In this document: piece by piece, positions 26,530 through 62,555 of the stretch | How the letters are laid out: the number at the start of each line of letters is the position of its first letter | Numbering within the stretch: the stretch's first letter is position 1 | NCBI RefSeq assembly: GCF_963506605.1 | Contig: NC_083288.1 | Span: forward strand, 43,090,001 to 43,154,000 | DNA length: 64,000 bases | Origin: Zootoca vivipara | Taxonomy: Eukaryota | Direction: 5' to 3' | The notes under the pieces: generated by a model | Databases searched by the model: none | Told to the model about the DNA's origin: nothing | Seen by the model: only the letters and a program-made list of their open reading frames with translations | Made by a program: the position numbers and the translations under genes

Positions 26530-26747
26530 ATGGTACTATTCGTGGTCTCAATATTAGTGTTCCTGCCTTATATGATATGCAGTGTTCCTGTTGCCACATA
26601 CACTGCTGACACTCCTCTTTCTATTATGCACAATTATTATCATTCAGGAGATCTCATCATTGCTGGAATTATTTCTCAGATCTACATGACATTTGATTCA
26701 ATGGATTTCAGAGGACATCCATCTGAGAAACTGATTGATGATATCAT
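26530..26747 (+). CDS. V2R: V2R-C exon 1
   Basis: 218 nt homolog. Confidence 0.87.
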
Positions 26748-28034
26748 GTACGAAGTAGCTGTTTTTAATCATATCATAATATCCACAGGCATTCTGATCT
26801 GATGTCTTTGGGTTTATGTGGGTGGGGGAGTGATTGCCAAAAAGACAGTCGATCTGCTTTTAGATTCTTCTTGGATGCGGCTGCATCTCAATTTTTTAAG
26901 TTAGCTCTTTCACTGTAGGATTCAGGATTTCCATACCACAAGTTATAATTGATGGAGGTTGGCTGGGATGCATACAACATTCCAGCCTACCTACATCACT
27001 GAGCTGTAGATAGGCAAAACTTTGATCAGGTTTAATTGCTGTTTGAAGTACTTAATTTAACATTGGAATGGGAGAGATCATCAGGGGGTTTGGCTTGGGT
27101 GTTCATCAGTATGCGGATGATTCCCAGCTCTACATCTCTTTCAAATCAGAACCAGTGAAGGCGGTGAAGGTCCTGTGTGAGTGTCTGGAGGCGGTTGGAG
27201 GATGGATGGCAGCTAACAGATTGAGGTTGAATCCTGACAAGACAGAAACACTGTTTGTGGGAGACAGGAGGAGGGCAGGTGTGGGGGACTCCCTGGTCCT
27301 GAATGGGGTAACTTTGCCCCTGAAGGACCAGGTAAGCAGCCTGGAAGTCTGGCATGGGGGGGGGGAATGGCCTTCCGGCTGACTGTCTGCCGGTCCCTTC
27401 TTCCACTGCTCTCTCTCCCTCCCCCTGGAGCAAGGGCTCTCTGATGCTGTCAGAGCCTTGGTTCCCCCTTTCTGTTTCCTGGCTCTTGTAACCTGATCCT
27501 GTGCTTGACTTATTGCTTGGCGAGGAACTCGACCTGATGAGGGGGGGGGGGTTGTTCCCTGTAAGCCTTCCCCCTTACAGTATACTTTTATACTCTCATT
27601 ATTGCCCTAGATAATATTATTCATTGATTCTTCATTCACCAAGCTACTTCTCCCCCCCCCAATAAATTCAATGCATTGTTGACAAAGATTTAGTTGTTTA
27701 TTTAGTTGTACCTTGGCTGTTGTTTCTGTGGGTTTCCTTTACCATGTGTCCAGGTAGACTTTTCCAACCACAGATTGTGCTTGCAGTCACTCCCACAATA
27801 CCTGTTCCAGTAAACTGGAATTTTCAGGCTTCTATTTAATCTCTATAATCCTTATATTTAATCAATGGTGTGATATACAGCATATGTAAACTATATATGT
27901 AGATATGCAACCATATAAATATATAGGTATATATGCATAGCACTTCCTAAAATTCCAACAAGTTGAAATCTCTAATACTGGAACGAATACCAATGCTTCT
28001 TCACAATTCTCTGCACTGCAAACATATTATCTTT

Positions 28035-28065
<31 letters not shown>

Positions 28066-31000
28066 CCCACCCACCACAAGCAATGTTATTAGCAGGCATA
28101 TATTGAAATCAAATGTTACACATTTTATATTCAGAAGTAGATGCACTTTGACACAGCATGCCAATCCCATTGCAGACTCTTTTTCCAAAACTATCAGCAT
28201 ATCTTGGCCTTGGTATATGCTGTAAAGGAGATCAATGAAAATCCACAAATGTTGCCTAATATTACCCTGGGCACACACATCTATAATAGCTATTTCCAAG
28301 CAAGCTGGACCTACCTCGCTTCAATGGACCTTCTCTCCACACAGGGAAGATTTATCCCTAACTTCAAGTGTGATGCCCAAGACAACGCAATAGCTGTTAT
28401 CACAGGACCAAATTCTCACATCTGTCATTTCATGGCACACATTCTTAGCACCTACAAGATACCACAGGTAGGATGTGCTTATCAAACATGGATTTACAAC
28501 TAATTTATTCCCCAATTCTCCTCTATGTGAATTTTTGTTTTTGGAGGTAGAACGCACCAGGATTGAAGGTGTTCATAAGTCAAAAAGATGTAATCAAGGA
28601 AAATAATTCTTCTCTTTATTTCATTTGTGGGGATATTGGTGAATACTTTCTCTTCTTGAGTAGGTAGTTCCCAACCAGCTCCAGAAACTCGTGGATATGA
28701 TTAATTTTCTAGTTCTTAGTTTAGGGTTCAGGTTTAGTTGTGATACTGAAATTGTATATTAGACACAAACTCCCCTATCTCCCAATTTTATTTCATTTTG
28801 TTTCTTAGCTTGTATATGGCTCTGCTCCAGTGACCAATGGCAAGCCTGAAGCTGTTTTCTTCAACCAGATGTTCCCCAATGAGGACCATCAGACCTGGGG
28901 GATTCTTCAGTTGCTGCTGCATTTTAAGTGGACATGGATTGGGGTGGCTTATATAAGTATTGAAAGTGGAGAGAAATTTATACAGAATGTGCTTCCCATG
29001 TTTTCACAAAGAGGTATATGCTTTGATTTTATAGAACAACTGCCAAAAGAATCCTTTTCCAGTAACTTTGATGAAATGATGAATGGCTTTTCTCGGGTAA
29101 ACAGTATTGTTCTGAGGAGCAGTGCCAGCACTGTGATCATACATGGTGATGTTCAGTTCACAGTCATTCTTAGAACAATGCTTGCTGGATATGATGGCAT
29201 AAAAATGAATAGTAAAGGTAAAGTCTGGATTATGACAGCCCAGATGGAGTTCACATCAGTTCCCTTTCAAAGAATGATGGACTTAGAGGCCTTCCATGGA
29301 GCTTTATCCTTTGCAGTTCCTTCTAAGCAGGTATTCGGATTCCTGGAATATCTTCAGATGAAAAATCCTACCTTGGAAAAGGAAGATGGTTTTATCATGC
29401 TCTTTTGGGAAATGGCATTTGAATGTTCTTTCCCCATGGATGACACCACAGATGAGGAAATGTGTACTGGAGAAGAGAAGTTGGAGACTCTTCCTACCTC
29501 TGTTTTTGACATGAGCATGACTGGCCACAGCTACAGTGTCTACAATGCTGTGTATGCTGTGGCGCATGCTTTGCAAGCCATGCATTCATCCAAATTCGGA
29601 CACAGAGCAATGGCATATGATGGGAGAGGGATTCTTCTAAAACAGCAGTTGTGGCAGGTAATATTCTAAGTGCCTTTCAATGTTGTTCCCCAACTCCACA
29701 ATCTTTGTAAAAAAATAGGGAAGTCAGCACTGGGAAGGTTAAGCCAGAGAATCAGCATACTGTTTGAAATGAGCATGACTGGCCAAAGGCAATATGTCAA
29801 TGCCTGCCACACCTTTATTATGTAAATGCAAATTAACAGTAATGTATGGAGAGAGGTGGGTGCTTCTGATTCTACAGCCATGGCAGCTAATGTCCTAAAT
29901 GTATATCTACAGAGGAATCCATCATAAATGCAATTTCAACAGAAGACCAGTAAATGTCTATCTACAACTTAAGGCTGGAGTGTTGACATCGGAATGGTAT
30001 TTTTGCCATAGTTTCCCTTCCGATCCAATTTGATATTGCTCCCCTGCAATCATTTCCCAGTGAAGACTATGAAACAACCCACAATGGTCAGACTTATAAT
30101 CTTAATTGTCAGTGATGTCTAAAAGAGAGCTATATTTCCATTTGTCCAATTCATTTTACTTATTCATTAGATTTGATTTCTGTAGGCAAGAGCACTAACC
30201 ATAGTTTCCAAATGGTCATTGCCATCACTATATTTGCCTGTTATTGTGCATTTATGATTGTGTCTCTTTGCTTCCATTTAGATTCACCACTATCTGAGAA
30301 GTGCCTCATTTAACAACAGTGCAGGCGAACAATTTACTTTTGATCAAAGTGGGCAAGTTGTCGCTGGGTTTGATATTGTAAACTGGGTCACATTCCCAAA
30401 CCAATCCTTTCTCAGAGTCAAAGTTGGAAAAGTAGACCCCTTGGCTGCCAAGGACAATGGGTTCACCATTTCTGCAGATGGCATTGTTTGGCCAAGCATC
30501 TTTAACCAGGTAGGTCTTGTGCAAATTTCAGCATTCAGGAGGATGTCTCCAACCTGGTAGGAGAACCTGAACCATTAAAAAACAACAACATGGGTCTAAT
30601 TATGGCTTTAACAGGGGAGTGAAAACACAGCCATCATGCTAGTACTCACTGCTAGCTTTATCCTCCATTAGTTTGTCTAATCCTCTTTTAAAGCCATCAT
30701 TGTATCCTGTACGAATAAGTGTCACATATTTTCCTAGCCATGCAGATAGACAGACTTCCTTCCACGTGTCCTGAATGTTTCAACATTCAGCTTCATTGAA
30801 TATCCCTGAGTTCTAGTGTTTTGAGAACATTGGATCTGAATTTATTTGAAATGGTAATTTGTTATTTTATTTATACAACTCTCTCACTTTTATTATATAT
30901 CCAGTTGTTCTTAATCTGTTTTTATAGTGTAGCAAATTTCTTCAGGAAGCCTCATGAGTAGCAATTCATAAACAAATTCATAAACAAACAAACAAACAAA

Positions 31001-31452
31001 CAAATAATAATGATAATGTATTGTGTCTTTATCTGCTTTGGTGTGTATTAAGAGGTCTTACCTGCCCTGAGATGAGCAATGGTGAGAAACAAGATCCAGA
31101 ACTTCTTCAATAAAGAAAAGCACTAATAAAATATTTGGTCAAACCATTTGTAACTGTGAAGAAACCACTGAAATATAAAACTCCCAAAATAGAATTGATG
31201 GTCATTATAGAACATTTCTGCTTTTATTTATTGACAGGGACAACCCCTTTCTGTGTGTAATGACAATTGCCATCCAGGGTATAGTAAGATAAAGTTGGAA
31301 GGGAAGCCATTTTGCTGCTATCATTGCCTCCCATGTCCTGAAGGGAAGATTTCAAATCAGAATGGTAAGAAATGCAAAGTAGAGCATTTGTTCAAATTTC
31401 AAATATAATGTGCTCGGATAATGACTTTTTAGCTTCCCCTCCCCCGTCTCTG

Positions 31453-31498
<46 letters not shown>

Positions 31499-34400
31499 AT
31501 TTCTATACCACCCTATACCTGAAGTTCTGTTCATGAACAGCCCTGGAACCTTCTAAATCTACTCTGGATTTTCCCTCCGCCCTCCAGAGCAGGTAAGAGT
31601 TAGGTGTGGAGATAACACAGAGAGAGAAGAGATCCCTGCATTTCATTGTACAAAGCAGTACCAGTGCATCTATTTTGTTTCTGACTGCTCATTGGAATTA
31701 ATCCAAAATATTGATGTATATATCAGGTTCCACAGGCATTGATTGATTGTTGGTTTTTGTTTTGTTTTTACTATTTCGAAGGTGACATAACCATTGCTGA
31801 TGTAACCAGTGACGGCATTGTATCTTTTTGTAAAAATTTCTGTAAGGGCTTTATGTGGGTGGTTTATTTATTTTTTTAAAAAAGTTGTTAACTTTTAAAA
31901 ACTTTTTAAAAAAAATTAAAACAAATTTGATTAGGAAAATTCAACAATATCAACAATATTACAATATATTACAAACATATTACAAGCCTGACCACACTCA
32001 TACATACATTCTTAATTGCAAATACAATACTGACTGCGCACATCTACATACTCATTTTCCCCACCACCACCCGATGTGATAGACTTCCAATCACATCAGC
32101 TCTAATTTATTTTATATTCCATTACTTTCTCTTGCATACTGTTATCTCTATACACTTCTTATCCTTCTTTACTATAAATACTAACTAATACTAACTAATA
32201 TTTCATATATCATTTTCATCTTCCTGTTTCTCTATATGTTAATTACAGAACTTGTCTTAATCTGATATAAATTCCAGCTTTTCAATATACTTTTAAAAAT
32301 ATTCTTTAAACATCTTCCATTCTTTCTCCGTTTTTTTCTTTTGAAACCCTTCCAATATTCCCCATTAATTTGACCAAATTATAATATTCTATTAATTTTG
32401 CTAGCCACTCTGTTTTCATTGGTATCTGGACGCTTTTCCAATTTTTCGCTCACAGAAGCCTCACAGCCACTGTTGCATATAGATACAATACCTTGTCTGC
32501 TTCCTTTAAATTTACTGGCACTATTCCCAATAGAAATCCTTCTGGCATCTTCTTGAATATTCATTTAAACATTTCATTATAAATGAAATCCCAACACTGT
32601 TTAATATTAGCACAGTCCATAGCTGCCAAGTTTTCCCTTGTCTCGCGAGGAAGCCTATTCAGCATAAGGGAAAATCCCTTGAAAAAAGGGATAACTTGGC
32701 AGCTATGGCACAGTCTCACCAAATATGAATCATGATTCAAAAATGTTTTTAAATGTAGTACTATATTTTGTTGTAAGGCATCTGAAAGCTTAAGGGGAAG
32801 GGTTGGTAATGAAGTAAAATAAAACCAATCAAATATAATATAGAACATGATTTCAGAGAAATATGGTGGAATTCATTATAACCAATCTGATGACTGAGGG
32901 CATTCCCGGATCACTGATAATTTGAGGTTTTTGGCAGACATAATACTGGGTAACGAGATCATCCAAAACAGAGGGCATCTGATCTGCATGCAGAAGGTCC
33001 CAGATTCAATCCCAGCATCATCTATCTGAAATGCTGGAGAGCCATGGACAGTCTGCAGAGAGAATTATGAGCCAGAGAGATCAATAGTCTAATCTGCTAT
33101 AAGGTAGATTCCTGTGTTCCTGTGTTATGAGAAGATTTCCCCAATATAAATACACTTATTTACTATAAGGAAGATGCTTCTTCTACCAAATGAAACGGCT
33201 TCCTACAAGAGAGAACAGTGACTGTTTCAAAGAAACTCCACTGAATGTAATTTGTTGAAGAAAAAAGCTTGGCTTTTACATTCATTTGAGCTTCCTTGAT
33301 TCAGGACTTCATAGTACTAACGCTTAAATACTGCAGTGCACTATGTATTGCTGTTTTTATTTTAAAGAAAACCATGTTTTCCTTTCCAGACATGGATGCG
33401 TGTTTTCAATGTCCAGAAGACCAGTATCCAAATGACCAACATGATTCCTGCATTCCGAAATATACAAGTTACTTATCTTATGAAGAACCTTTGGGATTAT
33501 GTTTCGCTGTTTCTGCTCTTTCCTTATCTGTTCTCACGTTTTTGGTACTCAGAGTCTTCATTAAGTACTGGCATACTCCCATAGTCAAAGCCAACAACAG
33601 GGACCTCACCTTCGCACTCCTAATATCTCTCCTGCTCTCTTTCCTTTGCGCTCTGCTCTTCATTGGCAAGCCTAATAAGGTGACCTGTCTCCTTCGACAA
33701 ATTACTTTTGGTCTCATCTTCTCAGTGGCGGTTTCTTGCATATTGGCCAAAACCACCATAGTGATTTTAGCTTTCATGGCTACCAGGCCAGAGTCCAGTA
33801 TCAGGAGATGGGTGGGGAATAAATTGGCCATTACCATTGTTCTTTCCTGCTCCCTAATTCAGACCAGTCTTTGTTGTGTGTGGCTGGCAACATCACCCCC
33901 ATTCCCAGATCTAGACATGCACACAATGACTGAAGAGATTGTGCTTGTATGCAATGAAGGTTCAGTCACCATGTTCTACTGTGTCCTGGGCTTCATGGGC
34001 TTCCAGGCCACAATCTGCTTCATTGTGGCTTTCCTGGCTAGGAATCAATCAATGCCTGTGGAACCTGACTCCAGGTAGGTCTTGTGCAAATTTCAGCATT
34101 CAGGAGGATGTCTCCAACCTGGTAGGAGAACCTGAACCATTAAAAAACAACAACATGGGTCTAATTGTGGCTTTAACAGGGGAGTGAAAACACAGCCATC
34201 ATGCTAGTACTCACTGCTAGCTTTATCCTCCATTAGTTTGTCTAATCCTCTTTTAAAGCCATCATTGTATCCTGTACGAATAAGTGTCACATATTTTCCT
34301 AGCCATGCAGATAGACAGACTTCCTTCCACGTGTCCTGAATGTTTCAACATTCAGCTTCATTGAATATCCCTGAGTTCTAGTGTTTTGAGAACATTGGAT

Positions 34401-35017
34401 CTGAATTTATTTGAAATGGTAATTTGTTATTTTATTTATACAACTCTCTCACTTTTATTATATATCCAGTTGTTCTTAATCTGTTTTTATAGTGTAGCAA
34501 ATTTCTTCAGGAAGCCTCATGAGTAGCAATTCATAAACAAATTCATAAACAAACAAACAAACAAACAAATAATAATGATAATGTATTGTGTCTTTATCTG
34601 CTTTGGTGTGTATTAAGAGGTCTTACCTGCCCTGAGATGAGCAATGGTGAGAAACAAGATCCAGAACTTCTTCAATAAAGAAAAGCACTAATAAAATATT
34701 TGGTCAAACCATTTGTAACTGTGAAGAAACCACTGAAATATAAAACTCCCAAAATAGAATTGATGGTCATTATAGAACATTTCTGCTTTTATTTATTGAC
34801 AGGGACAACCCCTTTCTGTGTGTAATGACAATTGCCATCCAGGGTATAGTAAGATAAAGTTGGAAGGGAAGCCATTTTGCTGCTATCATTGCCTCCCATG
34901 TCCTGAAGGGAAGATTTCAAATCAGAATGGTAAGAAATGCAAAGTAGAGCATTTGTTCAAATTTCAAATATAATGTGCTCGGATAATGACTTTTTAGCTT
35001 CCCCTCCCCCGTCTCTG

Positions 35018-35078
<61 letters not shown>

Positions 35079-62243: not shown

Positions 62244-62439
62244 TACAGGTAGGTAGCCGTGTTGGTCTGAGTCGAAGCAAAATAAAAAAATTCCTTCAGT
62301 AGCACCTTAAAGACCAACTAAGTTTATATTTTGGTATGAGCTTTCGTGTGCATGCACACTTCTTCAGATACAGATACATGCACACGAAAGCTCATACCAA
62401 AAATATAAACTTAGTTGGTCTTTAAGGTGCTACTGAAGG
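62244..62439. mobile_element. Penelope-like terminal remnant with 62-bp inverted repeat; partial copy at 63034-63100
   Basis: Arms 62293-62354 and 62377-62439; 15-bp flanking duplication GATATTTTTTCCAGT; family call is by resemblance only. Confidence 0.7.
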
Positions 62440-62555
62440 GATATTTTTTCCAGTGGGCCATAACAATTTCACTGTAATATATTAAAGGATCCGTTCTCAG
62501 ATCAAACTAGATGTAACACTAAGAGATTGCATAAAGGGCAATGAATAATGTAAAA

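Follow-up and report, generated by a model that had tools for sequence, protein, structure and literature searches.

The stretch of Zootoca vivipara DNA analyzed here (the window; 64,000 nt, positions 43,090,001 to 43,154,000 of contig NC_083288.1 in assembly GCF_963506605.1) carries an array of class C GPCR genes, comprising genes A, B, C and D and a more distant fifth. Gene B (11376-23410) is intact and encodes 873 amino acids (aa). Gene A (767-8648) consists of exon 1 and exons 5-6 without exons 2-4, and its intron 1 meets intron 4 at ~2112. Gene C (26530-37871, + strand) is a six-exon class C GPCR gene, which we take to be of the vomeronasal V2R type from its six-exon structure and its tandem clustering; it is likely to encode a pheromone receptor. 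The exon model places exons 1-4 at 26530-26747, 28176-28467, 28809-29657 and 30282-30509, followed by two copies each of exons 5 and 6 at 31238-31364 (5a), 33390-34043 (6a, cut short), 34803-34929 (5b) and 36970-37871 (6b). Pfam assigned ANF_receptor (PF01094) to exon 3 and 7tm_3 (PF00003) to exon 6, and the translated product has a hydrophobic N-terminus, seven hydrophobic segments and a cysteine-rich segment recognized by eye, which is the domain content of a V2R. Apart from the duplication described below, gene C is an intact six-exon gene: exons 1-5 are open, and 871 aa would be encoded if one copy of exons 5-6 were skipped. At least 40 exon-6-like matches were found in the 1.44-Gb genome.

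Several additional features of the array were observed. Just before the join in gene A there is a perfect AT palindrome of 22 nt (2079-2100), together with an apparent 8-nt repeat that is missing from intron 1 of gene D; the region of the join (2079-2112) is possibly a second repair scar, in addition to the one in gene C. A LINE with endonuclease and reverse-transcriptase frames, presumably RTE-like, lies at 2489-5800 and 17379-20545, in intron 5 of genes A and B and by the GTT microsatellite, and none is present in gene C; the copy in gene A has a 1104-codon open frame and that in gene B is in two frames. Self-inverted repeats at 53439-53697 (~250 nt) and 62284-62448 (~165 nt) are related to intron-5 segments of genes A and B (relatives of the former at 6537-6692 and 21286-21441, respectively), and are probably small non-autonomous DNA elements. 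Divergence between gene C and its intact neighbor gene B was 0.4-2.6% per exon and was uneven (0.4-0.7% in exons 1, 2 and 6; 2.4-2.6% in exons 3-5), a pattern suggestive of gene conversion, of unequal crossover or of selection acting on the ligand-binding region. The modeled exon-1 donor of gene C at 26747 (CAT/GTACGA) is a weak predicted site with 6 of 9 consensus matches; the same site is found in genes A, B and D, and its use keeps the frame.

Inside gene C, two direct head-to-tail copies of a 3.54-kb segment adjoin at one novel junction and constitute a tandem duplication. Copy 1 (30506-34043, + strand, 3538 nt) begins with the final 4 nt of exon 4 and ends at codon 790, within exon 6, whereas copy 2 (34071-37623, + strand, 3553 nt) runs on into the intact end of exon 6. 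Self-BLAST identity between them was 99.55%, and the only differences were one substitution (30602A/34167G) and the length of a microsatellite, (GTT)15 versus 20. Since gene B has the copy-2 base, copy 1 is likely to be the derived one at 30602. The divergence of the copies was 0.028% (1 substitution in 3538 nt; 95% interval 0.0007-0.16%); that between genes B and C at the head of intron 4 was 2.4%. Judged from the near-identity of the copies, the event is young, or else it involved copying from a homologue.

The two copies are separated by an inverted templated insertion (34043-34068, + strand, 26 nt). Self-comparison of the window found a single + occurrence of these bases and reproduced the claim of the sequence-only reading, which preceded this analysis, that they are the exact reverse complement of intron-5 sequence at 31723-31748 in copy 1 and at 35303-35328 in copy 2 (both read on the − strand; as sources, the two sites are indistinguishable). 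The first base (A, 34043) is common to the exon-6 flank and represents 1-nt microhomology, leaving 25 nt that are strictly new. The duplicated segment contains the template, at a distance of 1217 nt from the start breakpoint and 2295 nt from the end breakpoint. The paralogous template sites in genes A (6034-6059) and B (20779-20804) are one base off (GGCTCC versus GGTTCC), and gene C is the only exact source of the insert. GGTTCC had initially been regarded as a C-type allele; the base difference from A and B stands, but paralog D also has GGTTCC, so that this base of the template is probably ancestral and not specific to gene C.

When up to one mismatch was allowed, the insert was found at five places genome-wide, none of them beyond the insert itself and the sites in genes A, B and C, whereas a reversed control gave 0. 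Thus, no better or longer template was found elsewhere in the genome at this threshold, and a BLAST-type genome search with the junction revealed no better template among the 40 of 96 candidates that were scored. By chance, the 25 unambiguous bases would be expected 1.3e-10 times in the window and 2.9e-6 times across the genome; the inserted bases match a unique local template beyond chance. The insert is followed by two untemplated bases, CT (34069-34070, + strand), which have no template at either donor site and agree with neither the continuation of the template nor the bases upstream of 30506. A template for these two bases in the window was considered and rejected, as only matches of 8-10 nt, a chance length, were obtained. 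After CT, the sequence restarts at the copy of 30506 (the last 4 nt of exon 4 plus the donor). This order of insert, CT and exon-4 end with its donor is also what had been read from the letters, and it was borne out.

We then considered whether the junction is present in public sequencing data, in which 8 of 24 listed runs were examined: seven contig sets (seven sample codes) and one raw RNA run. The junction was found in contigs of three of the seven samples (X1, X2 and X3), with zero differing letters in each. The record spans 34014-34100 in both X1 (depth 55.6) and X3 (depth 6.7), and 33578-34100 in X2, where the left join is bridged under a 31-letter rule. The 87-nt records of X1 and X3 reach 30 letters past each join, one below that rule, and have the shape expected of a 31-letter-word contig over novel bases. 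It should be noted that X1, X2 and X3 share study code P1 and possibly come from one animal, possibly the assembled one; they do not represent three independent individuals. An assembly or library artefact, that is, a chimeric read or a false duplication, might be suspected from the near-identity of the copies and from the shared study code with its possible ties to the assembly. However, the same junction was recovered without a differing letter from three runs with three sample codes, at considerable depth in X1, and a chance chimera would not recur in this way. The same junction in three public runs supports the conclusion that it is no assembly or library chimera; the artefact explanation is largely refuted, and we regard it as highly improbable.

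The sequence-only reading had proposed that the event is real, that reads would carry the junction and that the duplicated segment would have about twofold depth. The first point agrees with the contigs of the three runs, all from study P1; the second holds for three of seven samples, within a single study and perhaps a single animal. For the third, the intron-4-to-junction depth ratios in X1 and X3 were 1.74 and 1.67 (2 would be expected if every copy of gene C were duplicated), and junction depth was ~0.6 of duplicated-intron depth in both; these values are near the proposed one and provide a weak hint, as contig depth is no copy number. Over 33500-34500 in X2, the depth of exon 6 (167-181) was similar to that of intron 4 (156-187), and in X1 and X3 exon 6 was 1.6-2.4 times higher; the X2 pattern may reflect library bias or a different copy number.

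In the remaining four contig sets (X4, X7, X9 and X11), a contig passes 34071 unbroken and the insert has no cover, and in X7 and X11 the loose end at 34071 corresponds to intact exon 4. The X7 and X9 contigs were of gene-B type over 34071-34362, with a 2-nt insertion after 34126 and, in X9, T at 34328 and 34330. These animals may be without a duplicated gene C, or without gene C at all, and contig simplification may also account for the pattern. Absence of the insert from these four contig sets is not proof, since contigs drop variants and X4 and X11 are shallow (~9); X2 itself has no break where the intact branch must leave. No RNA run was listed among those carrying the junction, and the RNA run X22 gave 0 reads at the locus, with ~6 in 100 of the run read. 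Taken together, the four of seven samples without the junction, with X7 and X9 of gene-B type and X4 and X11 shallow, weakly hint that the duplication is polymorphic.

Considering the origin of the junction, its anatomy supports the earlier proposal of a multi-switch event, and a single event of this kind, which is common to the fold-back and fork-switching readings, is very probable. If there had been two events instead, a simple tandem duplication would have been followed by a later break at the junction, patched from the nearby intron. Repeated damage is plausible in a cluster with other rearrangements, such as the loss of exons 2-4 from gene A. However, two hits at one base would be needed, for which a single substitution over 3538 nt leaves little time, and no simpler junction was found in the seven contig sets examined. 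We therefore consider two events improbable.

Within a single event, the reading that we favor, at somewhat better than even confidence, is one germline repair accident that combined copy-extension, fold-back priming and Pol-theta-like end joining. A break near the exon-4 donor would have been followed by copying of ~3.5 kb from the sister by one end, which would then be displaced as a single strand. The displaced 3' end, closing a 4-bp hairpin, would misprime 2.3 kb back on its own strand and copy 25 nt in reverse; it would then release, gain untemplated bases and perhaps snap back, giving a 5-nt match to the other end, and the ends would be joined by a Pol-theta-like polymerase. An equally good fit is given by the mirror-image order on the opposite strand. 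Because the displaced strand would prime on its own strand, the copy would be inverted and would come from inside the duplicated segment; self-priming on a displaced strand specifically predicts an inverted, kb-distant template in such a position.

Both joins have the potential for hairpins. The left-join hairpin (34031-34044, + strand) has a 5-bp stem and a 4-nt loop, and 4 bp of the stem pre-exist in the reference exon, ending exactly at the breakpoint. The right-join hairpin (34063-34076, + strand) has a 5-bp stem and a 4-nt loop containing the untemplated bases, and amounts to a direct match of 5 nt shared by the template start and the acceptor start (chance 1.3%). In 20,000 simulated same-locus junctions, a stem of at least 5 was observed at the left join in 10.6%, at the right join in 11.2% and at both in 1.2%; in a stricter test of the donor end, 213 of 5061 positions (4.2%) had a terminal stem of at least 4. 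These tests were framed after the junction had been seen and are suggestive only, each hairpin alone having a probability of ~11% under the lenient null. Direct microhomology was 1 nt at the left join and 0 nt, plus the two untemplated bases, at the right join; if hairpin snap-back is allowed, these values become 2 nt and 5 nt, and ~2-3 nt would be expected around a Pol-theta-type template.

Snap-back synthesis is known to create new microhomology (PMC5728401). As in snap-back SD-MMEJ, which involves a motif of at least 4 bp whose distal end lies within 30 bp of the join, 5-bp inverted motifs were found at both joins, although post hoc and with ~11% chance each; SD-MMEJ covers only a few bases per join and not a distant 25-nt template, and its lenient criteria are often satisfied by chance. 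For kb-scale duplication, an SDSA- or BIR-extended end that fails to re-anneal can be joined by Pol theta, producing tandem duplications with templated insertions (PMC8654963, PMC13031629, PMC13031928). Joining of failed SDSA intermediates has been reported to give duplications that range from ~100 bp to 10 kb and occasionally carry templated insertions (PMC8654963), and in worms and plants the same process operates at larger scale (PMC13031629, PMC13031928). The duplications in C. elegans helq-1 and tnsl-1 and Arabidopsis tonsoku mutants resemble the present one in head-to-tail kb copy gain with a templated insertion at a single junction (PMC8654963, PMC13031629, PMC13031928). In those repair mutants, however, the templates described flank the junction and the inserts are 1-20 bp, whereas here a longer insert of 25 nt, from a template 1.2/2.3 kb away, is found in a natural vertebrate allele. 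For Pol-theta insertions, the distribution of template positions peaks within 20 bp of the join, in a survey that was limited to 500 bp and consisted mostly of deletions (PMC11541566), and the distances here, 1217 and 2295 nt, lie far outside this peak. In yeast, MMBIR-type inserts derive from templates no more than 100 bp away (PMC8421209). Fold-back over a kb-scale distance is therefore an extrapolation from known ranges.

On the other hand, pure replicative template switching (FoSTeS/MMBIR) without end joining, in which a stalled or collapsed fork left exon 6 for intron 5 on the opposite strand, copied 25 nt and then jumped back to the exon-4 end and resumed, duplicating 3.5 kb, is a close rival, though less probable. 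It would explain the copy gain, the three segments (with at least two discontinuous ones, as expected of such a process) and the kb-distant template. FoSTeS/MMBIR has been invoked for PLP1, where head-to-tail duplications have junction insertions of 11 and 27 bp (PMC6902434). In humans, a template lies within 10 kb at 871 complex deletion sites, or 53% of those assessed (PMC4617611). These 1000 Genomes structural-variant breakpoints are similar to the present junction in having a match of at least 10 bp within 10 kb, but are deletions, whereas a duplication is found here (PMC4617611). Human PLP1 junctions (PMC6902434) and germline MMB-TIs (PMC8421209) likewise contain short insertions from iterative switches at head-to-tail junctions, and inverted templates occur among them; ~100 germline MMB-TIs of at least 25 bp per person were reported in two people (PMC8421209). 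However, such junctions usually have at least 2 nt of microhomology or microhomeology (PMC6902434, PMC8421209), whereas the first switch here has 1 nt and the second 0 nt with two untemplated bases; in the PLP1 data, joins with 1 bp, blunt joins and joins with insertions form a minority (PMC6902434). Moreover, fork switching by itself predicts neither an inverted template inside the segment nor hairpins at both joins, and no cluster of new substitutions was found at the junction, the lone substitution lying 97 nt into copy 1. The sequence-only reading had left FoSTeS/MMBIR and Pol theta open. One junction can neither decide between them nor name an enzyme; with its template at a distance of 1.2-2.3 kb, the insert does not fit a simple local Pol-theta fold-back.

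The duplication has predictable consequences for the product of gene C. The exon-4 splice donor is recreated at 34072-34080 (+ strand; cut between 34074 and 34075) and has 8 of 9 consensus matches, the top score among the donors of gene C. A read-through stop (34076-34078) lies within it, and the read-through product would have 800 aa with an 11-residue new tail, of which 8 full codons plus 2 nt come from the antisense intron. If the recreated donor were used, a frameshift stop would be encountered in exon 5b (34855-34857, + strand), giving 817 aa. As stops 50-55 nt or more before the last junction trigger NMD and this one is 72 nt upstream of the last exon junction, the spliced transcript is predicted to be an NMD target. 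Other single-skip forms would have 814 aa and 578 aa. Every non-skipping transcript, as well as the single-skip forms, stops before TM6-7, and the cut exon 6a covers positions 1-189 of 251 of Pfam 7tm_3. The earlier suggestion that antisense intron sequence supplies new C-terminal codons is correct for the in-frame reading; the strong exon-4 donor at the junction, however, makes splicing into exon 5b with its frameshift stop the likelier predicted outcome. Since either product would be without TM6-7, gene loss is a more likely result than a new protein end. Unless skipping of two exons occurs, this allele of gene C is likely to be a pseudogene, newly formed within a large family of receptors.

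The squamate V2R repertoire is indeed large, and snake V2Rs commonly include pseudogenes that stop short of the end of TM7, among them 39 putative corn snake pseudogene contigs (PMC3590772). No large insertions or deletions were seen in the transcripts of that study, in contrast to the intragenic duplication found here (PMC3590772). No lizard case of a templated insertion at a duplication was found in our literature search, which was too narrow to call the present case unreported. The scar belongs to a class already known from humans, worms and plants, and inserts with a local template are commonplace, given 871 human sites and ~100 insertions per person. One junction changes nothing known of these pathways, and its significance is modest. 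A stronger interpretation would be that of a still-segregating germline allele whose nascent strand self-primed 2.3 kb back, with hairpin snap-back at each switch; this would extend Pol-theta-type fold-back ~hundredfold beyond its measured range and would make such events a source of receptor pseudogenes within a pheromone-receptor cluster of a reptile, and we consider it tentative and rather unlikely in this full form. Nevertheless, the junction in gene C may serve as a polymorphic marker, and it provides a clean, read-supported example in which one receptor of an expanding family was likely disabled by a single repair accident.
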